From positions 1 to 57,786 of the forward strand of contig CAZIFP010000001.1 of assembly GCA_964538105.1 (NCBI GenBank): a stretch of 57,786 nucleotides of DNA, given 5' to 3'. Source of the stretch: an uncultured Bifidobacteriaceae bacterium. Its GTDB lineage: Bacteria > Verrucomicrobiota > Verrucomicrobiia > Limisphaerales > UBA11358. A program made the translations under genes and the position numbers. Shown piece by piece: positions 5,568-52,272 of the stretch; the first letter of the stretch is position 1; each line of letters begins with the position of its first letter. The notes below the pieces were generated by a model, which searched no databases, was not told where the DNA came from, and saw only the letters and a list, made by a program, of their open reading frames with translations.

Positions 5568-6985
5568 ACCGGCTCGCCGTCATCAACGTCGTCGGCCTCA
5601 CCGAGGCGCTCATCGGCGAACACACGCCGCGCATCGCGGCCTTCCGCCAGCGCGGCGCGCTGGCGCAAATCGCGCCGGCATTTCCGGCGGTGACTTGCAC
5701 CGCGCAGTCGAATTATCTCACCGGCAAAACGCCGTCGGCGCACGGCATCGTCGGCAACGGCTGGTTTAATCGCGAACTTTCAGAAATTCATTTTTGGAAG
5801 CAGTCAAATCACCTGGTTCAAAGCCCGAAATTATGGGACGCGCTCCGCACGCAATCTGAAATCGTAAATCATCAATCATCAATCGCAAATTGCTTCTGGT
5901 GGTTCAACATGCATTCCAGCGTGGATTATGCGATCACGCCGCGCCCGATTTACCGCGCCGACGGCGGAAAAGTTTTTGACGTTTACTCTTGGCCATATTC
6001 CATCCGTGAAGAAATTAAAAAGGATCTGGGCGAATTTCCGTTCTTCGGTTTCTGGGGGCCGGTGGCGGGAATGGATTCACCGCAAGGAAAAGCCGATTGC
6101 GCCTCGCGCTGGATTGCCGAATCCGCGAAGTGGATGGAAAATAAATATTCGCCCGCGCTGAACCTGTTTTACATGCCGCATCTGGATTACAACTTGCAAC
6201 GGCATGGAACTTACGGCGCTTCGGGAAGTCTAAATCCCAAAATCCACCGCGACCTGCGCGAGATTGACGCCATCGTCGGTGACCTGATTGATTTTTTCGG
6301 CCAGCGCGGCGTGCGGGTGGTTTTGCTTTCTGAATCCGGAATCACGAACGTGGACACGCCGGTGCATCTCAACCGGATTTTCCGCGAGCGCGGCTGGCTG
6401 ACGGTGAAGGACGAGCTTGGCCTGGAAATTCTCGACGCCGGCGCGAGCAAGGTTTTCGCCGTCGCCGATCACCAGGTCGCGCACATTTATTTGAACGATG
6501 CCTCGCTGGAAAAATCCGTGCGCGACGTTTTGGAAAAGACACCCGGCGTCGGAGAAGTTCTCGGCGAAGCGGAAAAATCCGCCGCCGGTCTCGCGCATCC
6601 GCGCGCGGGCGATTTGATTGCCGTCGCGCAGGAAAACGCCTGGTTCACCTATTATTACTGGCTCGACGACTCACGCGCGCCGGATTTTGCGCAGACGGTG
6701 GACATCCATCGCAAGCCCGGCTATGACCCGGTGGAATTATTTCTCGATTCGAAGATTCCGCTGCCGAAACTAAAAATCGCCTGGCGGCTGCTGCAAAAAA
6801 AACTCGGCTTCCGGATGCTGATGGATGTGATTCCGCTCGACGCGACGCTGGTGAAAGGCTCGCATGGCCGGCGGCCGGCGGACAAAAAGGACTGGCCGGT
6901 TTTCATAACCGACAGGTCGGGACTTCTGGCTGCAAAGGAGATTGAATCAACGGACGTTTATCACGCCCTGCTCCGGCATTTTTGA
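5564..6985 (+). CDS. alkaline phosphatase superfamily protein, nucleotide pyrophosphatase/phosphodiesterase (NPP)-like
   Basis: The N-terminal VINVVGLT...PAVTCTAQSNYLTGKTPSAHGIVGNGWF has the Thr nucleophile context of type I phosphodiesterase/NPP enzymes. The ATG overlaps the upstream stop (ATGA at 5564-5567). Confidence 0.8.
   Translation: MNRLAVINVVGLTEALIGEHTPRIAAFRQRGALAQIAPAFPAVTCTAQSNYLTGKTPSAHGIVGNGWFNRELSEIHFWKQSNHLVQSPKLWDALRTQSEIVNHQSSIANCFWWFNMHSSVDYAITPRPIYRADGGKVFDVYSWPYSIREEIKKDLGEFPFFGFWGPVAGMDSPQGKADCASRWIAESAKWMENKYSPALNLFYMPHLDYNLQRHGTYGASGSLNPKIHRDLREIDAIVGDLIDFFGQRGVRVVLLSESGITNVDTPVHLNRIFRERGWLTVKDELGLEILDAGASKVFAVADHQVAHIYLNDASLEKSVRDVLEKTPGVGEVLGEAEKSAAGLAHPRAGDLIAVAQENAWFTYYYWLDDSRAPDFAQTVDIHRKPGYDPVELFLDSKIPLPKLKIAWRLLQKKLGFRMLMDVIPLDATLVKGSHGRRPADKKDWPVFITDRSGLLAAKEIESTDVYHALLRHF
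5853..5894. repeat. six tandem heptanucleotide units (AATCNNN) embedded in frame in the NPP-like CDS
   Basis: Read directly: aatctga aatcgta aatcatc aatcatc aatcgca aattgct. This is 42 nt, or 14 codons, encoding QSEIVNHQSSIANC. It is an AT-rich island in a GC-rich gene. Confidence 0.85.
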
Positions 6986-34949: not shown

Positions 34950-34980
34950 AATCGTAAATCGTGAATCGTAAATCATAAAT
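34950..34980. repeat. heptanucleotide tandem repeat (AATCRTN x4.4) in the KS/KS-like intergenic spacer
   Basis: Read directly: aatcgta aatcgtg aatcgta aatcata aat, immediately after the KS stop codon (34981-34983). It belongs to the same unit family as the repeat at 5853-5894. Confidence 0.85.
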
Positions 34981-39009: not shown

Positions 39010-39780
39010 TCAGAGAATTTTCCGCCCGTGTTTGGCACGCTGCCGCAATTTCCAAATCCGTTTCATCTGCGGCAACATCTCCAGCACCAAAAGCGTGTGC
39101 CGCCGGATGAGCAGCAAATTGTCCCGCAGATAATGGAAGTGGGAGGTTCCGCCCTCGGCCGGTTTGAAATAGTGGACCGGCGCGGGTAGGTTGACCGGCG
39201 GGACGCCGGCCCAAAAAAGCCGCACGGCAAGTTCGGTGTCGAAATCAAAACGCCGCGCGCTGCGGATGCCTTGCAGGATGCGCACCGATTCCTGAATGGG
39301 ATAAACCCGAAAACCAAACAATGAATCTTCGATTCCGCCCCAAAAGGTTTCCAGATTAGCCCACCAGTTTCCCACGCGCCGGCCGTGCCGACGCGATGCC
39401 GGCGCGTCGGCGGCAAATTGCGGCACGCCCAAAATCATGGCGGCGGGATTTTTCTGCGAGGCCGACATGAACTGGGGAATATCGGCCACCGAATGCTGCC
39501 CATCCGCGTCCAGCACCAGCGCATGGGTGAAACCCTCCCGGCTGGCTGCGAGCATTGCGTGTAACACCGCCGCGCCCTTTCCAGAATTTCGTTCCAGGGT
39601 TAAAACCCGCAGCCCGGCTCCGTCAATTTCGGCCACAGCCGCCGCACTGCCGTCGGTGCTGCCGTCCATCACGACCCAAACCGGCTGCCAGCAAGCCAAT
39701 GCCTGTCTCACCGTTTCGGCGAGTTTGCCTCCCGCATTGTAACTGGGGATGACAACCAAATGCGTCGGACTCGTCGTCAT
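39010..39780 (-). CDS. family 2 glycosyltransferase
   Basis: VVIPSYNAGGKL, MDGSTDGS and a DxD-like LVLDADGQH are typical of the GT2 GT-A fold. It overlaps the upstream acyltransferase by 4 nt. Confidence 0.85.
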   Translation of the reverse strand: MTTSPTHLVVIPSYNAGGKLAETVRQALACWQPVWVVMDGSTDGSAAAVAEIDGAGLRVLTLERNSGKGAAVLHAMLAASREGFTHALVLDADGQHSVADIPQFMSASQKNPAAMILGVPQFAADAPASRRHGRRVGNWWANLETFWGGIEDSLFGFRVYPIQESVRILQGIRSARRFDFDTELAVRLFWAGVPPVNLPAPVHYFKPAEGGTSHFHYLRDNLLLIRRHTLLVLEMLPQMKRIWKLRQRAKHGRKIL

Positions 39781-40589
39781 TTGTTTTGAATCGCTGTTAA
39801 ACTGTTCTCCTCGGATGGTAAAAGTCTTTCCCGAAAATAATTTTCCACCCGGCCGCCGAATGTTTTCGCGTCCTCGCCCGGTGCCGGCTGAAATCGCTGG
39901 CCCAGCCGCAGCGAATAATGCAGCGGAAACGCCGGTCGCTTAAAAAGCGGCCTGCCTTTGCCCAGAAAGTTGGTGTCTGTAGTAATGAAAACGGTTTGCA
40001 CGGGTGACCGGGTCAAAACCGCGACCAATGCGAAACCCATTTTGAAGGGCAGCAATCTTCCGCCTAAAGTTCGCGTGCCTTCTGGAAACACCAGCAAGCT
40101 GGCCCCTTCCTGCAGCCGCTCCTCACATTTTTTGACCAGGCCCAAGCCCGATTTATTGTGGACATACCCGGCCAGCCGCGCCGTTCCCGACAAAACAATG
40201 TTGCGCGCCAAACTTCCCTTCATCAGGCAGACAGTCTGCGGCATTTGCGAAACCATCAGCACCACGTCCAGCAGGCAGGGATGATTTGCCGCCACGATCA
40301 ATCCGCCAAATTCGCGCAGACCCGACAACTCGCTCGTGTCCAGTTCCACCAATCCAAACGCGCGCATATAGCCCACAAAAAACCGGAACAGCTTGTGGAT
40401 CAGTTTTTGTCCGAACCCGCGTGCACGCGCTCCACGAAATAAAACCGCAGGAACCATGCAAATCACGCTGACCAGCGAACCGACCACCGCAAACATCAAA
40501 TACGCCCCATAAAAGGCTGCGGTTTGCAAAACGCCTTTGAACCAGTTTTTCGTGTGTGTCGTCATCCGCCAAAAAATCATGTTTTGCAA
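39777..40589 (-). CDS. lysophospholipid/1-acyl-glycerol-3-phosphate acyltransferase family protein (PlsC-like)
   Basis: The HX4D motif is ANHPCLLD and the FPEGTRT motif is present, with an N-terminal TM helix. It is the first gene of the minus-strand operon 40589->33539. Confidence 0.85.
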   Translation of the reverse strand: MQNMIFWRMTTHTKNWFKGVLQTAAFYGAYLMFAVVGSLVSVICMVPAVLFRGARARGFGQKLIHKLFRFFVGYMRAFGLVELDTSELSGLREFGGLIVAANHPCLLDVVLMVSQMPQTVCLMKGSLARNIVLSGTARLAGYVHNKSGLGLVKKCEERLQEGASLLVFPEGTRTLGGRLLPFKMGFALVAVLTRSPVQTVFITTDTNFLGKGRPLFKRPAFPLHYSLRLGQRFQPAPGEDAKTFGGRVENYFRERLLPSEENSLTAIQNK

Positions 40590-46051: not shown

Positions 46052-46486
46052 TTAGTTTCCGCTGAGCGTCAATTCCGCCGTCAGCACAATAATCTCCGCG
46101 CCGACGCGGGCGGTGGCCTGTGCCTGAACCAAAGTGCCGAGCCGGCCGGTTATTTTTGCCTCAAGGTGGATGGTTTCACCGGGTTTCGCCGTGCCGTGAA
46201 TTTTCACGGATCGCAGCGCGGTCAGTTTCAAATTACGAAGCGGCGGAATTTTCGGGTCGCTTTGCGCCACGACGCCCGCGAGCTGCGCCGCAGCCTCGAC
46301 GAGCAGCACACCGGGAAAAATCGGTTCATTCGGAAAATGGCCGCGCAAAAACGCCTCGTCCCCGCGGACGGTGTATTCGCCTGCGCCGCTTTCACCGGGG
46401 TTCAAACTCGTCAGCCGGTCAACGAACCGGAATTCCGCGCCATGCGGCAGAAATTGTAGCGCACGTTGCAAATCGTCTGGATTCAT
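46052..46486 (-). CDS. 3-hydroxyacyl-ACP dehydratase (FabZ/FabA-like hotdog fold)
   Basis: FRFVDRL...LRGHFPNEPIFPGVLLVEAAAQLAG contains the catalytic His and downstream Glu context of FabZ. The start is at MNPDDL, overlapping the upstream stop (ATGA 46483-46486). Confidence 0.85.
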   Translation of the reverse strand: MNPDDLQRALQFLPHGAEFRFVDRLTSLNPGESGAGEYTVRGDEAFLRGHFPNEPIFPGVLLVEAAAQLAGVVAQSDPKIPPLRNLKLTALRSVKIHGTAKPGETIHLEAKITGRLGTLVQAQATARVGAEIIVLTAELTLSGN

Positions 46487-47184
46487 CTGGCAAACGGATC
46501 GGTGACTTTGTAATTGGCGGGCGGAGTCCACTCGAATAATTTTTCGTCCAGCACCGGATTCAAGACCGCGTTGCTGAAATCATTCCGCATCCGCGAGCCG
46601 TCCACAAAAACCAGTTCGGTGCTGGCCAGCGAGAAATCATTCGTCGCCAGACCGATGCGCAGTTCCGGCATCATCCGCTGCGCGAAAGTGCTTTTCGGCT
46701 GGAGCGACATTTGCCATGTGGTATTCGTTTCCATGAGCGACAAAATCTGAAACTGCGCGTCAAATTCCTTCCGGTCGCGCGGAAAACCGGCCTGCAACAG
46801 CGACATCGTATCGCGCCATTCGGTGGGCGTGCCGGCCCCAAGCGGATAGCGCTCGGCGCGTTTCAAACGCGGATAAATCACGAACATCTCGTCGCCATGC
46901 CGGAGCGCGATGGTCTGTGCCGGCTGGCCGAGTTCCCAGCGAAAGTCGTTCGGCATGGCGAAGGCGATGTGGCCTTTGGCGGTGAGCGGCTGGGTCAGAG
47001 TTTTCAACGCGCGGGTCTGGACAAAATCAGCGGACCAGGTGTGGAGGTTTTTTTGCGCGGCGAACCAGGCGTCGAGAACGGTGTTGGTGTCGGCCGCACC
47101 GGCAATGAAAAATGAAAAATGAAAAATGAAAAATGCCGCTGCCAGTTGTGTCGATTTTTTAATTTTGAATTTTGAATTTTTCAT
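46483..47184 (-). CDS. LolA-like outer-membrane lipoprotein carrier family protein
   Basis: The signal peptide is MKNSKFKIKKSTQLAAAFFIFHFSFFIAGAAD. The mature part (WFAAQKNLHTWSADFVQTRALKTLTQPLTAKGHIAFAMPNDFRWELGQP...) follows the LolA/LolA-like pattern seen in aryl-polyene clusters. The start overlaps the upstream stop (ATGA 47181-47184). Confidence 0.72.
   Translation of the reverse strand: MKNSKFKIKKSTQLAAAFFIFHFSFFIAGAADTNTVLDAWFAAQKNLHTWSADFVQTRALKTLTQPLTAKGHIAFAMPNDFRWELGQPAQTIALRHGDEMFVIYPRLKRAERYPLGAGTPTEWRDTMSLLQAGFPRDRKEFDAQFQILSLMETNTTWQMSLQPKSTFAQRMMPELRIGLATNDFSLASTELVFVDGSRMRNDFSNAVLNPVLDEKLFEWTPPANYKVTDPFAR
47105..47181. repeat. two AT-rich heptanucleotide tandem repeats inside the signal-peptide coding region of the LolA-like gene
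   Basis: Read directly: (atgaaaa)x4 + atg at 47105-47135, and (aattttg)x2 + aattttt at 47161-47181. On the coding strand TTTTCAT x4 encodes FFIFHFSFFI. Confidence 0.85.
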
Positions 47185-50100
47185 TTCTGCTGTTGCTCCG
47201 GCCAGACCGGGACGAAGTGAAACCAGTGCGCCAGATGCTGCCGGATGGCCGGCTCGAACGCACGCAGGATTTCCTGGGTCAACTGGATGCGGGCCGCCCG
47301 GTTGCCGATCGTGGCGCGGTCGTAGGGAATCTCCGGCAAAATCCGGGCGAGATGACCGCCGCCCTGGCGCACAATGTAAACCGGAACAATGGCACAACCC
47401 GAGGCGCGGGCGAGTTCGGCGGCGGCGATTGAAGCCGGAAACGGACGGCCAAACAGATCCACGTTCACCGCCGTCGGCGCGGGCGGACGATCCACCAGCA
47501 ATGCCACCGTGGCCCCGGCCTGCAGGCGCTTGATGATTTCAATGAAGGCAAAGGCGTCTTCGCCGACGACCAGGGTTTCAACACCCCGCAATGATCGGGA
47601 ACGCTGGCGCAGTTCAGTCATCTTTTGATCCGGCTCGGGCTGCGTGAGCACGAGCAGTTTGTAACCGTGTTCGACGAGAAACGCGCCTCCGAATTCCCAG
47701 TTCCCAAGATGCGGCGTGACCAGCAGCACACCCCTGCCGCGCGCATGAGCGGCGGCGAAATGTTCCCAGCCGTTCCACTCGCCCAGCCAGCTTTCAAACG
47801 CCACACCGCTTTCGTAACGCCAGAGGTCGGTGATTTTAAGAAAAAATTCCGTGATCAATTCCCGGCCAACACGGGCGGCTTGCGGACGGTCGCCGTTCAA
47901 AGCGGGCAGAAGGTTTTGAATCACGATTTCGCGCCGATGCGCCGCCAGCCGCCAGTAGATCGCGGCCAGCATCCGGGCAAAGAACCCGAAAACCGGCGCA
48001 GGAATGTAGCGTCCGAGCGTCAAACCGGCCCGCCAGATGAACGTGCTGTAGAATTGCGACGGCTCGGAAATTTTTGCGGACGCAGTTTTCAAGTTCTTCT
48101 CGCCAACAATAAATTTCCACCATACCGGCAATAGAAAAACCGAGAGCAGCATGTTGCAACCGATGCCGATGGCGCAGACCCGGCCGAGGCTGGACATGCC
48201 TATGTTGCTCGATAGGCCGAGCGTGCCGAAACCGGCGATCGCCGTCCCGCCGCAAAGCAGCAGCGCGCGTCCGACCGATTGATGGGCCAGTTTCAAATCG
48301 CCGCCATGCCGGCGCAGCGCTAGCTGCATGAAAATGCTGTAATCCACGCCCGTGCCGAGAATCAGCGGTAGCGCCATGAGGTTGAGCAGATTCCACGACC
48401 AGCTGAAAATCTTCATCACTGCCAGCAGGCAGAGGCCGCTCAAAAGCAAAATTCCGACGCTGAAAAAAACTTCCGCGAACCGCCGGAACGCCAGCCAGAG
48501 TGAAAACAGGATCAGTCCGACCATCGGCAGCAGGACTTTCCAGAGATTGTTTTTGACGGCGGCCAGAACAGTTCCGCCGAGCAAATCCCAGCCTGAAAGC
48601 CAGACTCCATCGTGCGGCAGTTGCTCATCCAGCCGGGCAAACGCGGTCGTCGTTGCGTTCGTCGATGGATAAAGGAAACCCACGGCATAAAAGTTTTGCG
48701 GCTCGCGGACAGACAGCTTTTCAAAAATCCAAGTGCAGAGCGGATTCGTCGGCCAGAAAACATTCGTGGTCGCGGCGGCGCGCTGCCAGGTTTCCAAAAT
48801 GCTCCCGGTCAGTCCAAGCGCAGTTTCGGAAAAGCTATTGGTCAAGGCGGCGGCGCGAAACAGATCCAGTTCAGCGGCAAGCTGCCGGGCACTCGCACGA
48901 TTGGCGGCTTGAAACTCCGGTCGCGGCCAGAGCGCACTGGGCAGCGTTAAGCCGGAAAGCGTCTGGTTGGAGACCGCGGTGTTGAGCGCCGGCAGAACCG
49001 CATCCAACTTTCGCGCCACTTCACTTTCATCACGGCCCGAAATCACCAGCCAGAGCGGCTCGCGCTTTTGGTTCAGGTTTTCCTTGATGGAGTCGAGCGT
49101 CGTGTAGGCCTGACTGTCGCGCGGGCGCAGGGCGTTGGCGGTGGGATCCATTTTTGGCAGGCCGGACATCAATATCACGGCGCAGAGCAAAATTATAAGC
49201 GCCGTGACCGTGAAGACAAATTTTGCACGGAGCGGGTTTAGCAAAGACGGAGAATCAACCGCGCTTTTGGATTCTACACGTTTCGCTTGAGCCCGCATTC
49301 GTTGCGGAAACAACGGCGGAAGAAACGCAAAAATCATCACGCAGGCCGAAATGGCGACGCCAATGCCGACAAGCGAGCCGAGTTGGGCGAGACCCGGCAG
49401 TCCGCCAAAGTTCAAAACAAGAAAGGCGGAAATCGTGGTAAACGCCGCCCAGAAAATGCTCGGGGCGATCGCGCGGCGGATTTCCGGGATGGATAGTTCC
49501 GGCTGCGCGAGCGCCTCCTGATAATGCACGACGGCGTAATCCACCGCGAGCCCAAGCAGGATTGCCGCGAAGCCCATGCTGATGACGTTGACCGCGCCGA
49601 AGATCAGGCCGCCGAGCGCGAGCGACGTCGCCAGAATCAGGGCCAGTAGCGTCAGCAGCCAGAGCATCGGCTTGATCCGCCGGTGGGCGCACCAAAATAG
49701 AATCGCGATAATCGAGGCCGTGCCACCGACGGACAATTTCATGTCGTGCTGCATGCTGCCGGAAATTTCCGCCGTGAATGCCGGCCGGCCGGTATAACCA
49801 ATTGTTATCTTTGCATCGGACGGCGACTTGTTGATGACGCTTTTTATGGCATTGAACCATGCCGTGCATTCGCGGTAACCATTCAGTTCACCTCGCGCCT
49901 TGACGAAAATGATCCGGAACGTGCCGTCGGCAGAGGCGAATAATTCCTGTCCCGACCCGAAACCGGAAACCGTTCCGGCGACATTTTCAGGCAGGCGCGT
50001 CAGGCCAAACGGATCGTAGCTTAACTGCGCGATTTCATTGGGCGAAAGCGTGGTGGCCAATTGGTCTCGCGTGGCCGCGAGCACATTCGCGAGATTCGTT

Positions 50101-50477
50101 TCGGAAAGCTGGCCGGCCAGTTGCACAAATTGTTCCGGCGGTTGATTCAGCCAGAGATACGCGATGAGTTCGGCGGTCTGTTCGGGATGCTCCTGCCACG
50201 GCGGCTGCCAGGTGACGGCGGCAACGAGATTGGTCGCTTGCTGCAAGCCTTTGGCGATGGCTTTGGCGGCGTGTTCGGCGGTGTCACGGTCCGGTGCCCG
50301 GACGGTGATGATCAGTTCGCGTGCGTCCGTGAAATGTTGCTGATAAATCTTGAGCCCTTGAACTGCGGGAATGTTTGCGGGTAGCAGGTCGAGCATCTCG
50401 GCATCCAAATGCAGCCGCGCCAGTCCTGCAATGATCGGAACCAGCAGCAGCAACCACCACCAGCGAAACCATTTCAT
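47181..50477 (-). CDS. fusion protein: MMPL/RND-type exporter (N-terminal ~800 aa) + LpxL/HtrB-type lipid A biosynthesis acyltransferase domain (C-terminal ~290 aa)
   Basis: The N-terminal part has two blocks of ~6 TM helices with large loops, typical of MMPL-type 'putative exporter' proteins of aryl-polyene clusters. The C-terminal 290 aa (about 47184-48053) carry HLGNWE (HX4E) and the Lip_A_acyltrans-like pattern. The start is at MKWFRWWWLLLLVP (50477), overlapping the upstream stop. Confidence 0.82.
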   Translation of the reverse strand: MKWFRWWWLLLLVPIIAGLARLHLDAEMLDLLPANIPAVQGLKIYQQHFTDARELIITVRAPDRDTAEHAAKAIAKGLQQATNLVAAVTWQPPWQEHPEQTAELIAYLWLNQPPEQFVQLAGQLSETNLANVLAATRDQLATTLSPNEIAQLSYDPFGLTRLPENVAGTVSGFGSGQELFASADGTFRIIFVKARGELNGYRECTAWFNAIKSVINKSPSDAKITIGYTGRPAFTAEISGSMQHDMKLSVGGTASIIAILFWCAHRRIKPMLWLLTLLALILATSLALGGLIFGAVNVISMGFAAILLGLAVDYAVVHYQEALAQPELSIPEIRRAIAPSIFWAAFTTISAFLVLNFGGLPGLAQLGSLVGIGVAISACVMIFAFLPPLFPQRMRAQAKRVESKSAVDSPSLLNPLRAKFVFTVTALIILLCAVILMSGLPKMDPTANALRPRDSQAYTTLDSIKENLNQKREPLWLVISGRDESEVARKLDAVLPALNTAVSNQTLSGLTLPSALWPRPEFQAANRASARQLAAELDLFRAAALTNSFSETALGLTGSILETWQRAAATTNVFWPTNPLCTWIFEKLSVREPQNFYAVGFLYPSTNATTTAFARLDEQLPHDGVWLSGWDLLGGTVLAAVKNNLWKVLLPMVGLILFSLWLAFRRFAEVFFSVGILLLSGLCLLAVMKIFSWSWNLLNLMALPLILGTGVDYSIFMQLALRRHGGDLKLAHQSVGRALLLCGGTAIAGFGTLGLSSNIGMSSLGRVCAIGIGCNMLLSVFLLPVWWKFIVGEKNLKTASAKISEPSQFYSTFIWRAGLTLGRYIPAPVFGFFARMLAAIYWRLAAHRREIVIQNLLPALNGDRPQAARVGRELITEFFLKITDLWRYESGVAFESWLGEWNGWEHFAAAHARGRGVLLVTPHLGNWEFGGAFLVEHGYKLLVLTQPEPDQKMTELRQRSRSLRGVETLVVGEDAFAFIEIIKRLQAGATVALLVDRPPAPTAVNVDLFGRPFPASIAAAELARASGCAIVPVYIVRQGGGHLARILPEIPYDRATIGNRAARIQLTQEILRAFEPAIRQHLAHWFHFVPVWPEQQQK

Positions 50478-50971
50478 GGGAAAAATTCGCCCTCCAGCGT
50501 TTCGCCCGTGTGTGAATCTTGCAGTCGCCACGAATTGGTTTCAATACGCGTAAATTTCCAACTGCCGCCGAGGTTAGGGTCAAGCAGTGCGTGAGGCAGT
50601 TGAAACCAGCCGAAGCGATTGAGCGGCGTGCCACGGCCGTGCCACGCGTATTGGTCCGCACCGAATTCAATCTGCCATTGGTCGCCGGAAACCTGCGCGG
50701 TCGCCAGCGGAAACGGCATTTTTGAAAACTGGATGAAAAAATTTCCGTTCACATTGGTGGCCAGCAGCAGATCGCCGGCAAGTTCGGGGCGGCTTGACGA
50801 AGGTTTCCAGACGGCCTGGCCCTGCTGGACGCGCCAGCCGGGCGCGGAAAAATCGGCTGGCGGAAACGGCCGGGCTGTGCGGCAGCCCGCGCAAAGAATC
50901 AGCAGCAGCGCGGATAAAATGAGGATGGAACGGTGCACACGAACGATTTCAATTTCGATCGGACGTTTCAA
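50474..50971 (-). CDS. small lipoprotein, possibly DUF3261-like
   Basis: A signal peptide with LILCAGC lipobox-like site is followed by a beta-rich ~140-aa mature part. Its position between halogenase and exporter matches the DUF3261 lipoprotein slot of aryl-polyene clusters (a recollection). The apparent start is TTG, overlapping the upstream TGA (TTGA). Confidence 0.55.
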   Translation of the reverse strand: MKRPIEIEIVRVHRSILILSALLLILCAGCRTARPFPPADFSAPGWRVQQGQAVWKPSSSRPELAGDLLLATNVNGNFFIQFSKMPFPLATAQVSGDQWQIEFGADQYAWHGRGTPLNRFGWFQLPHALLDPNLGGSWKFTRIETNSWRLQDSHTGETLEGEFFP

Positions 50972-52272
50972 ACTTTCGCGGCGGCTTCAGAGGTTTGAAA
51001 TTGTTTCAGATGTCGCCGCAGAAAAGGCAGGTGCGGCACGAGCGGCCAGCGTTGCTGGAGTTTGACGAGCAGGAAAAAGTATTTCAACCGCCAGCGCAGT
51101 TTCCACCCGCCTTCCAGCTCGCCCGCCAGCACGGCGTTCACCGCCGACGGCAGATCGTGGTGGTCGCGCGGCTGCAAAAAAAGTTCCATGAACGGCGTGG
51201 TGTAATAATTCTCCACGACATGCCAATAAAACATGAGTCCCTTGCGGACGCGCTTTTCGTAACTGGCAAACAGCCGGCGACTCGGTCGGCCTTGCGCGAG
51301 TGATTTCTGAACGGCTTCGGCGGCGATTTTTCCCGACCACATGGCAAGAAAAACTCCGGCGGAAAAAATCGGGTCCATGAAACCGGCGGCGTCGCCGACG
51401 CGCAGCAAACGGTCGCCGGTAAATTTGCGGTTGTAGTAGCTGAAATCGGTCGTCGTCTGGAGATCGCCGAGGCGGCGCGCATTTTTCATGCGCTCTTTGA
51501 CGGGCGGGCTGGATTCGATCCAACGGTGAAAAATTTCCTCGGGAGAGCCGCCGGTCTGGTTGAACTCGTCCTTGTCAATGACGAGACCGACGCTGGTTTT
51601 TTCGGCGGAGAGCGGAATGATCCAGAACCATTTGTTTTGGAGGCGGACGATGACGGTGTCGGTGTTGGCCTCGCCGGAGTCGCGCACGACATTTTCAAAA
51701 TGGCCGAAGACGGCGAGCTTTTTCCAGGTCGGGTGCATCTCGCGCAGATTTTCCTGGTTGCCGGTGAGGTTGCCGCGTCCGCTGGCATCAATCAGAAACG
51801 CCGCACGGAAATTGTAGGTTTTCCCGCCGGAATCGCGCGCCTCGACATTCACGCCTTCGGAATCAGAGACGGTTTTTATCACCGACCAACCTTCGCGGAC
51901 ATTCGCCCCGGACTCGCGGGCGTGCTTCAGCAGAACGTGATCAAAGGTTGCGCGTTCAACCTGGATGGCTTCCGGCTCGCGGTTGAATCTGCCCTGCCGG
52001 AAAACAAAGCGTGTGCTGATGGATCCATTGCCCAGTCCGAATTGCGCGCCGTATTTGCGCGGAAATCCCGCCGCCTGCAACGCGGGCAGGACGCCCATGT
52101 CGCGGAAAATGGTCATGTTGCAAGGCAGGAGCGATTCACCGATGTGAAAGCGCGGGAAAATTTCCTTTTCCAACACGAGCACCCGCTTGCCCGCCCGTGC
52201 GAGAAATGTGGCGGCGCTGCTGCCGCCCGGACCGCACCCGATGATCAGCGCGTCATAAGTATCCTGATTCAC
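50968..52272 (-). CDS. flavin-dependent halogenase (Trp-halogenase/FAD-dependent oxidoreductase family)
   Basis: The FAD-binding fold is GCGPGGSSAA (residues 13-22). The halogenase hallmark WxWxIP is WFWIIP (residues 215-220, nt 51613-51630, verified on the DNA). The second hallmark FxxPxxSxG is FMDPIFSAG (residues 298-306). Confidence 0.8.
   Translation of the reverse strand: MNQDTYDALIIGCGPGGSSAATFLARAGKRVLVLEKEIFPRFHIGESLLPCNMTIFRDMGVLPALQAAGFPRKYGAQFGLGNGSISTRFVFRQGRFNREPEAIQVERATFDHVLLKHARESGANVREGWSVIKTVSDSEGVNVEARDSGGKTYNFRAAFLIDASGRGNLTGNQENLREMHPTWKKLAVFGHFENVVRDSGEANTDTVIVRLQNKWFWIIPLSAEKTSVGLVIDKDEFNQTGGSPEEIFHRWIESSPPVKERMKNARRLGDLQTTTDFSYYNRKFTGDRLLRVGDAAGFMDPIFSAGVFLAMWSGKIAAEAVQKSLAQGRPSRRLFASYEKRVRKGLMFYWHVVENYYTTPFMELFLQPRDHHDLPSAVNAVLAGELEGGWKLRWRLKYFFLLVKLQQRWPLVPHLPFLRRHLKQFQTSEAAAKV

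Follow-up and report, generated by a model that had tools for sequence, protein, structure and literature searches.

The stretch of DNA analysed here, which we call the window, comprises 57,786 nucleotides (nt) and forms positions 1 to 57,786 of contig CAZIFP010000001.1 in the assembly GCA_964538105.1, deposited as an uncultured Bifidobacteriaceae bacterium and placed by GTDB in the order Limisphaerales of the Verrucomicrobiota. On its minus strand it carries a gene for a chimeric protein in which an exporter of the MMPL family is continued by an acyltransferase domain. Open reading frame (ORF) analysis of the window gives a single open frame, running from an ATG at 50477 to a TGA at 47183-47181. 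An alternative GTG start at 50531, 54 nt upstream of the ATG, would make the protein 18 amino acids (aa) longer, but the ATG appears to be the better start because it overlaps the stop codon of the upstream gene as ATGA and because homologues align from residues 1-5. At the other end the TGA of the fusion overlaps the ATG of a LolA-like gene at 47184, and the GC content is uniform along the whole gene. An earlier note on this DNA had described one polypeptide of 1098 aa with a domain boundary near nt 48053 and the motifs HLGNWE and VDRPP. All of this was borne out: the minus-strand frame is uninterrupted, the match to the acyltransferase family PF03279 spans aa 809-1092, and the motifs are found with HLGNWE at 47694-47711 and the DRP of VDRPP at 47484-47492.

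The same architecture is found well beyond the source genome. A search of 5.8 billion proteins was performed with the fusion, and the best 120 protein clusters, which were looked at, all contain proteins of about 1100 aa with both Pfam domains; those bearing a name are proteins from metagenome-assembled genomes (MAGs) of Verrucomicrobiota. A scan of species-representative genomes yielded 80 loci, which were also used for the neighbour-gene counts given below. Their bins are Verrucomicrobiota with the label Limisphaerales, Pedosphaera or subdivision 3, together with a few that are evidently mislabelled, and the hosts are soil and freshwater Verrucomicrobia. In 69 of the 80 loci, from independent species-level genomes and at 39-92% identity, a clean frame passes through both domains. 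Residue conservation was read from an alignment of 76 sequences covering the same range of identity (39-92%), in which His923, Glu928, Asp996 and Arg997 as well as Asp313 and Asp712 are invariant. Across the order, the fusion gene or its separate genes are matched in 114 of the 201 genomes sampled; by hand count, about 60 of these hold the complete fused frame and about 10 hold contig-end fragments that cross the junction, the rest being split. One 97%-complete genome from the same genus as the source gives no match to the fusion. Six matches were flagged for internal stops, and in the two full-length ones looked at (G403 and G401) the stops fall outside the aligned coding part. The fusion is a real, old and conserved chimera. 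Public databases contain it in large numbers, automatically named for instance 'MMPL family transporter' or, at JGI, 'predicted exporter/lauroyl/myristoyl acyltransferase', and no published description of an exporter-acyltransferase fusion was found in the literature searched.

The exporter half is recognised by the Pfam family MMPL (PF03176) with 81 bits for a cut-off of 20.5, in two stretches within the first 790 residues. Both hydropathy and the AlphaFold2 model give 12 transmembrane (TM) helices, as for the 12-TM MMPL-like exporter of the earlier note. In the model single helices lie at residues 3-21 and 415-436 and groups of five at 231-383 and 630-790, and two large periplasmic domains follow TM1 (about aa 27-245) and TM7 (about aa 439-644). 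TM4 and TM10 each carry an Asp-Tyr pair, and the two pairs presumably form a proton relay, a role that we assume from what is known of MmpL3 and HpnN. The best match among solved structures by sequence is HpnN, the hopanoid transporter belonging to the resistance-nodulation-division (RND) superfamily from Burkholderia (PDB 5khn, E 3e-23), which is also the best match by fold with Foldseek (PDB 6wu0, E 4e-23) and is followed by MmpL3, MmpL4 and MmpL5. The 12-TM MMPL architecture, the two periplasmic domains and the Asp-Tyr relay pairs are common to HpnN and the window protein. However, the fusion stays below both curated HpnN cut-offs (TIGR03480, 167.2 vs 751.85 bits; NF052374, 113.3 vs 1100), the window exporter is without a hopanoid gene context, and HpnN itself carries no fused enzyme. 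The proteins of the ape cluster of E. coli CFT073 served as the comparison set for aryl-polyene systems. Of these, the exporter ApeM gives BLASTP matches to the exporter half that are local only, at about TM2-6 and TM9-10, with E values of 4e-6 and 1e-5.

The acyltransferase half matches the Pfam family Lip_A_acyltrans (PF03279) with 89.2 bits for a cut-off of 22.3 (E 3.5e-25), over profile positions 13-293 of 295. When modelled alone, the domain reaches a mean predicted local distance difference test (pLDDT) of 90.4 and a predicted template modelling score (pTM) of 0.88. Its closest fold is that of PatA, the phosphatidylinositol mannoside (PIM) acyltransferase of Mycobacterium smegmatis (PDB 5f2t, 5f34 and 7ojt; TM-score 0.83-0.87), with a root mean square deviation of 2.4-2.8 A over about 250 columns at 22-24% identity. 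A profile search had earlier been named as a check on the acyltransferase fold of this C-terminal region, and the fold is present, with the PF03279 match, the HX4E dyad and the PatA-like structure. PatA is monotopic and membrane-associated, and its reaction, the acylation of a glycolipid's sugar, is the one that we propose for the window domain; it differs in being free-standing, in using acyl-CoA and in belonging to actinobacterial PIM synthesis. It is also the best NCBIfam model, yet with 96.9 bits the domain falls short of the equivalog cut-off of 209 (NF005919). Judged from the profiles and the model, the window domain thus appears PatA-like by fold and not a PatA orthologue.

The relation to LpxL and LpxM is more distant. 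The PF03279 family and the HX4E dyad are shared with these enzymes, while LpxM of A. baumannii (PDB 5kn7) is a weaker fold match, with a TM-score of 0.66-0.67. The curated LpxL, LpxM and LpxP cut-offs are all missed (TIGR02207, 41.3 vs 297.8 bits; TIGR02208, 19.2 vs 336), and the best lauroyl-acyltransferase model gives 63.9 bits for a cut-off of 248. A second PF03279 gene occurs in the source genome at bases 1-501 of contig 473, where it is cut by the contig end. Per residue, lipid A lauroyl-acyltransferase models match this fragment better than the fused domain, and it is probably the housekeeping LpxL. The description of the fused domain as a lipid A-type late acyltransferase, which the earlier note had given, therefore holds at the level of the superfamily and not beyond it, the LpxL/LpxM cut-offs being failed and PatA being nearest. 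We regard the domain as a member of the LpxL/PatA superfamily and not as a lipid A enzyme, because of the missed cut-offs, the fold that is best matched by PatA and the better LpxL candidate elsewhere in the genome.

The two halves are connected by a hydrophilic linker, which is disordered in the model and the sequence of which is given in the table below. The first helices of the acyltransferase, aa 812-824 and 827-844 with the conserved Pro826 between them, are amphipathic (hydrophobic moments of 0.54 and 0.36), are flanked by positive charges on both sides and stay under the hydropathy level of a membrane span. Furthermore, the free-standing acyltransferases of related genomes start with 20-30 hydrophilic residues and have neither a signal peptide nor a TM segment. 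Since the exporter has 12 TM helices its C-terminus would be cytoplasmic, and the acyltransferase would be a monotopic enzyme of the cytoplasmic face, as in PatA. LpxM is anchored in the membrane via an N-terminal transmembrane helix; in contrast, the equivalent helices of the window protein would be monotopic if the domain is cytoplasmic.

Five minus-strand genes stand close together here, and the fusion is number three among them. The remaining cluster genes are found at a distance of 4-14 kb and encode an AMP-ligase, a PlsC-type acyltransferase, a GT2 glycosyltransferase, a CE4 deacetylase, methyltransferases, a radical SAM enzyme, a ketosynthase (KS), a chain length factor (CLF)-like protein and an acyl carrier protein (ACP), the last three being 11-14 kb from the fusion in the same window. 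This is a lipid cluster of the aryl-polyene/flexirubin type. The small lipoprotein-like product of the second operon gene, of about 165 aa, has no family match in profile searches and no sequence similarity to ApeN, and it was rejected on these grounds as an ApeN/DUF3261 equivalent; its position and lipoprotein signal suggest that it may play a LolB/ApeN-like role.

Table. Features of the fusion gene, of its operon and of other exporter fusions in the phylum. Positions are those of the window, except where a locus is named before the colon; locus counts refer to the 80 loci. The codons of the residue motifs were verified at the positions given.
Feature	Position	Strand	Basis
Whole fusion gene, 1098 aa + stop codon	47181..50477	(-)	Unbroken frame, start and stop checked, both Pfam domains matched
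MMPL/RND exporter domain, aa 1-787, 12 TM helices	48117..50477	(-)	PF03176, hydropathy, AlphaFold2, Foldseek
Asp313-Tyr314, TM4, first half of presumed proton-relay pair	49536..49541	(-)	D313 invariant, Y314 >=90%, 76 sequences
Asp712-Tyr713, TM10, second half of presumed proton-relay pair	48339..48344	(-)	D712 invariant, 76 sequences
22-aa hydrophilic linker KFIVGEKNLKTASAKISEPSQF, aa 788-809	48051..48116	(-)	pLDDT <50 at aa 795-803
LpxL/PatA-superfamily acyltransferase domain, aa 810-1098	47184..48050	(-)	PF03279, domain model, Foldseek, ApeJ alignment
HX4E motif HLGNWE, His923 + Glu928	47694..47711	(-)	H923, G925, N926, W927, E928 invariant, 76 sequences
Asp996-Arg997-Pro998 block	47484..47492	(-)	D996, R997 invariant, P998 >=90%, 76 sequences
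FAD-dependent halogenase, operon gene 1	50968..52272	(-)	Trp_halogenase + FAD_binding_3; 40/80 loci, many cut on that side
Small lipoprotein-like gene, ~165 aa, operon gene 2	50474..50971	(-)	Signal ...LILCAGC; stop overlaps fusion ATG; 70/80 loci
LolA-like periplasmic carrier, operon gene 4	46483..47184	(-)	PF03548, LolA + flexirubin LolA2 models; 77/80 loci
FabA/FabZ-like dehydratase, last operon gene	46052..46531	(-)	PF07977; 65/80 loci
Second-lineage exporter::acyltransferase ORF	L138:995-4033	(-)	
Second-lineage exporter::acyltransferase ORF	L139:1073-4612	(-)	
Second-lineage exporter::acyltransferase ORF	L140:683-3736	(-)	
Second-lineage exporter::acyltransferase ORF	L141:1410-4337	(+)	
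Second-lineage exporter::acyltransferase ORF	L142:1439-4312	(+)	
Exporter::DUF3261 ORF	L121:1348-4374	(-)	
Exporter::DUF3261 ORF	L123:921-3863	(+)	
Exporter::DUF3261 ORF	L124:917-3886	(+)	

The cluster follows the same module logic as the aryl-polyene systems of E. coli and Xenorhabdus, with KS/CLF/ACP for chain synthesis, acyltransferases of the PlsC type and of the LpxL superfamily, a GT2, an exporter of the MMPL family and a carrier resembling LolA, which in the known system is ApeL. The fused domain aligns with residues 284-557 of ApeJ at 25% identity over 289 columns (E 2e-7), and the motifs are in register, HLGNWE standing opposite HLGDVE and VDRPP opposite GDR. The E. coli counterpart of the domain is, by this alignment, the C-terminal half of ApeJ. 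ApeD was also considered as a counterpart and rejected, as it belongs to PF01553 (PlsC type) and shows no similarity to the fused domain; the window has an ApeD equivalent in the separate PlsC-type gene at 39777-40589. The two systems thus differ in how the modules are joined: in E. coli, ApeJ unites the acyltransferase with the GT2 and the exporter ApeM stands alone, whereas in the window the GT2 is free-standing (39010-39780) and it is the exporter that carries the acyltransferase. The earlier note had described exporter and acyltransferases as separate proteins in aryl-polyene and xanthomonadin clusters, which is right for ApeM, while the acyltransferase of ApeJ is itself part of a GT2 fusion. 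Over the E. coli ape cluster, the window cluster has in addition the halogenase, the radical SAM enzyme and the CE4 deacetylase, and its small lipoprotein stands in the place of DUF3261/ApeN, which it does not resemble in sequence. For E. coli it has been proposed that ApeJ first attaches N-acetylgalactosamine (GalNAc) to the lipid anchor, that it next uses the carrier-bound aryl polyene to acylate this GalNAc, and that ApeM exports what ApeJ has made (Grammbitter et al., 10.1101/2020.12.19.423268); the same division of labour between ApeJ and ApeM was proposed by Johnston et al. (PMC8253772). By homology, the window domain may transfer a carrier-bound polyene onto an anchor sugar, an activity that is itself a proposal for ApeJ.

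In a search of 300 evenly drawn Verrucomicrobiota genomes with the window protein, no other full-length fusion was found outside the order, and the closest exporter orthologues in this sample are unfused proteins of about 800-850 aa. Two of these orthologues (loci L006 and L007) stand in a row of halogenase, lipoprotein, exporter and LolA genes that lacks the acyltransferase. Of the split genomes of the order that were inspected, nine have the acyltransferase gene immediately behind that of the exporter and in a different frame, the two genes overlapping as ATGA or TGATG or being less than 100 nt apart; in two further ones a gap of 350 nt or one extra gene lies between them. On an exporter tree rooted with exporters of other classes the fused forms are basal and the split forms are nested at four places, this tree being the product of a quick search with long outgroup branches and with fused rows that had been picked among the top full-length matches. 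For 118 metagenome-wide representatives placed on an unrooted tree, 8 changes of the fused/unfused label are required, and well-supported branches force 6 of them. As these trees suggest, the history is most economically read as a single old fusion, after which at least four fissions gave adjacent, translationally coupled genes.

The junction DNA of some relatives is repetitive. Tandem heptanucleotide arrays with 3.9-6.9 copies make up the linker DNA of 13 genomes (loci L036, L037/L071, L060, L063, L069, L072, L074, L077, L080, L081, L095, L097 and L107), for example TCACGCA x6.9 and TCGCCCC x6.1. The gain or loss of one heptamer shifts the frame and would hence be a plausible route between the fused and the split or truncated states. 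The window's own linker is without such an array. Heptamer arrays, perfect or near-perfect, do occur just past the stop of the fusion, AATGAAA x4.6 at 47104-47135 and TTTTGAA x3.6 at 47156-47180 (plus strand), both inside the signal-peptide coding part of the LolA-like gene, its first 80 nt. More arrays of period 7 are seen in the window at 5859-5884 and 34950-34980.

A second set of exporter::acyltransferase fusions was found in the phylum only when the C-terminal half of E. coli ApeJ was used as the query. It consists of five single ORFs of 958-1180 aa (L138-L142) from three other Verrucomicrobiota families, whose N-termini match ApeM (E down to 5e-25) and whose C-termini match the C-terminal half of ApeJ (E down to 1e-25). 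The HxGxxE motif is present in four of the five, as HVGTVE, HLGTVE, HIGNIE and HFGAVE. Compared with the window protein they reach an E value of 1e-11 at best, and are thus nearer to E. coli ApeM and ApeJ. Because these proteins resemble the E. coli ones more than that of the window, the second lineage is most likely a separate fusion event, and the pairing of exporter and acyltransferase would on this evidence have been selected more than once. Other families of the Verrucomicrobiota have single ORFs of 980-1008 aa in which an exporter is followed by DUF3261 (ApeM::ApeN/LolB-like). There the DUF3261 domain follows the cytoplasmic end of the exporter and yet would need access to the periplasm, which is puzzling. 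The exporter of such clusters is therefore a fusion partner that recurs. One further candidate, a frame of 1104 aa ending in PF03279 (L126), was rejected as a fusion, because its N-terminal part of 800 aa resembles the antisense reading of a GC-rich gene and not an exporter.

The gene, its domains with their motifs and folds, the operon and the conservation are established; for the substrate, the acyl donor, the topology, the direction of the hand-over and the kinetic benefit of the tether we infer a scheme in which the tethered domain performs the last acylation, the pump extracts the product and a LolA-like carrier takes it over; as a whole we give this reading a probability of about 0.6. 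The anchor glycolipid would be built by the PlsC-type acyltransferase, the GT2 and the CE4 deacetylase of the cluster. The tethered domain, held at the cytoplasmic face of the inner membrane by its two amphipathic helices, would then move the finished acyl chain made by the cluster from its carrier protein to the sugar head group of the anchor, as the last step of assembly. A flexible tether of about 20 residues, starting at the cytoplasmic end of TM12, would keep the enzyme beside the exporter at a 1:1 ratio. The exporter would draw the finished lipid from the inner membrane using the proton gradient and pass it to the neighbouring LolA-like carrier, from where it would reach the outer membrane, possibly via the small lipoprotein encoded upstream. 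We favour this reading because split genomes of the order keep the acyltransferase directly behind the exporter, and because the operon from the halogenase to the FabA-like gene is conserved, with ATGA overlaps on either side of the fusion. Moreover, its homology to ApeJ makes the fused domain the likely last assembly enzyme, and a tether to the pump would make sense for such an enzyme. Functional coupling of acylation to export is, in our view, plausible.

A comparable coupling, physical or functional, of an exporter to the last acylation step or to an acyl carrier protein at the membrane is seen in mycobacteria, with MmpL8-Chp1-Sap, MmpL10-Chp2 and MmpL5/MmpL4-AcpM (PDB 9dp6 and 9mw0). There the partners are separate polypeptides, whereas the link in the window is covalent and occurs in a phylum of Gram-negative type. 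The Chp enzymes belong to a different family from the window acyltransferase. Published precedents for biosynthetic proteins that dock on MMPL pumps are the MmpL5-AcpM complexes (PMC11633376, PMC12346298; PDB 9dp6) and the pairs Chp1/MmpL8 and Chp2/MmpL10 (PMC3318749, PMC4183827), of which Chp2 acts at the periplasmic face (PMC4183827).

Several observations weigh against the proposed scheme. The exporter half is more HpnN-like than ApeM-like. The linker, taken from Trp787 to Tyr810, is unconserved and varies from 13 to 76 aa across homologues, with a median of 22. Prediction of the full-length structure, a check that had been named earlier, gives confident domains and a pTM of 0.64 with no confident placement of one domain relative to the other. 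The covalent link is dispensable, because it was given up for two genes at least four times. At loci L010 (G153) and L011 (G039), from other families of the class, the homologous acyltransferase has the halogenase on one side and the FabA-like gene on the other, neither exporter nor LolA being present between them, a layout which shows that it can function apart from the exporter. Finally, in 18 of 86 homologues the first helices of the acyltransferase reach Kyte-Doolittle values of 1.6-2.3, always with an internal Arg or Lys, so that membrane-spanning helices and hence a periplasmic enzyme are conceivable in some homologues. The acylate-and-export machine of the earlier note is for these reasons accepted in part: the physical tethering is real, while an obligate machine is more than the unconserved linker, the at least four fissions and the lack of a confident geometry would support.

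Other explanations of the fused frame have to be considered as well. Two genes could have been merged in the MAG by a lost stop codon or a frameshift error, and the source genome is indeed a fragmented MAG with 488 contigs and 73% completeness. The chance of this is negligible, given a continuous frame kept in 69 independent genomes from different studies and in more than 120 protein clusters, invariant catalytic residues on either side of the junction and no compositional break along the gene; judged from these comparisons, an artefact can be taken as already refuted for the whole family. It is also very improbable, and disfavoured, that the C-terminal domain is a housekeeping LpxL/LpxM joined to the exporter and serving lipid A biogenesis. 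The name of the PF03279 family and weak matches to several lipid A lauroyl-acyltransferase models speak for such an enzyme, but all LpxL/LpxM/LpxP cut-offs are missed widely, PatA is the top model and the top fold match, the gene on contig 473 fits better, and the cluster is accessory, being matched in 114 of the 201 genomes of the order and absent from the 97%-complete congener.

Drift is a more serious alternative, though on balance a doubtful one. Adjacent, coupled genes may have been merged and separated by insertions and deletions in their spacer in a near-neutral manner, in which case the fusion would reflect co-expression with no channelling or mechanistic coupling. The interconversion of fused and split states at least 4-8 times would fit such a process, as would the split forms that keep the gene order and the ATGA/TGATG overlaps with the acyltransferase in another frame, the low-complexity linkers without conservation, the heptanucleotide arrays in which one unit shifts the frame, and the absence of a confidently predicted interface between the domains. 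However, the fused state has lasted across the whole order, down to 39% identity, it is apparently basal on the rooted tree, a second and independent lineage joined the same partners, and the neutral fusion of an enzyme to a polytopic pump would often harm its membrane insertion. At the other extreme, the protein could be a true channelling machine, in which the acyltransferase, docked on the cytoplasmic side of the exporter, feeds the inner-leaflet entry of the pump and the carrier-bound chain is delivered there, as with AcpM and MmpL5; this we hold to be unlikely. We keep to the tethered last-step enzyme as the preferred reading.

Known parts are rearranged here within a familiar type of pathway, and the bacteria are uncultured, so that the reach of the finding is moderate. 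If channelling proved true, the protein would be the first natural chimera of an enzyme and an RND transporter and a model for substrate acquisition by MMPL proteins, and repeat slippage in the relatives with array linkers could turn the coupling on and off. The single polypeptide offers an enzyme-pump pair for work on structure or activity, and the repeated fissions supply controls made by nature, close relatives carrying either the fused or the split form. The fusion would also constrain this acyltransferase subfamily to a monotopic topology at the cytoplasmic face. Furthermore, it can be read as 'Rosetta stone' evidence that an ApeJ-type acyltransferase and the exporter act successively on one molecule, and the hand-over of a lipid from its last enzyme to an RND/MMPL exporter is a step that matters for the widespread aryl-polyene clusters as well as for the envelope lipids of mycobacteria.

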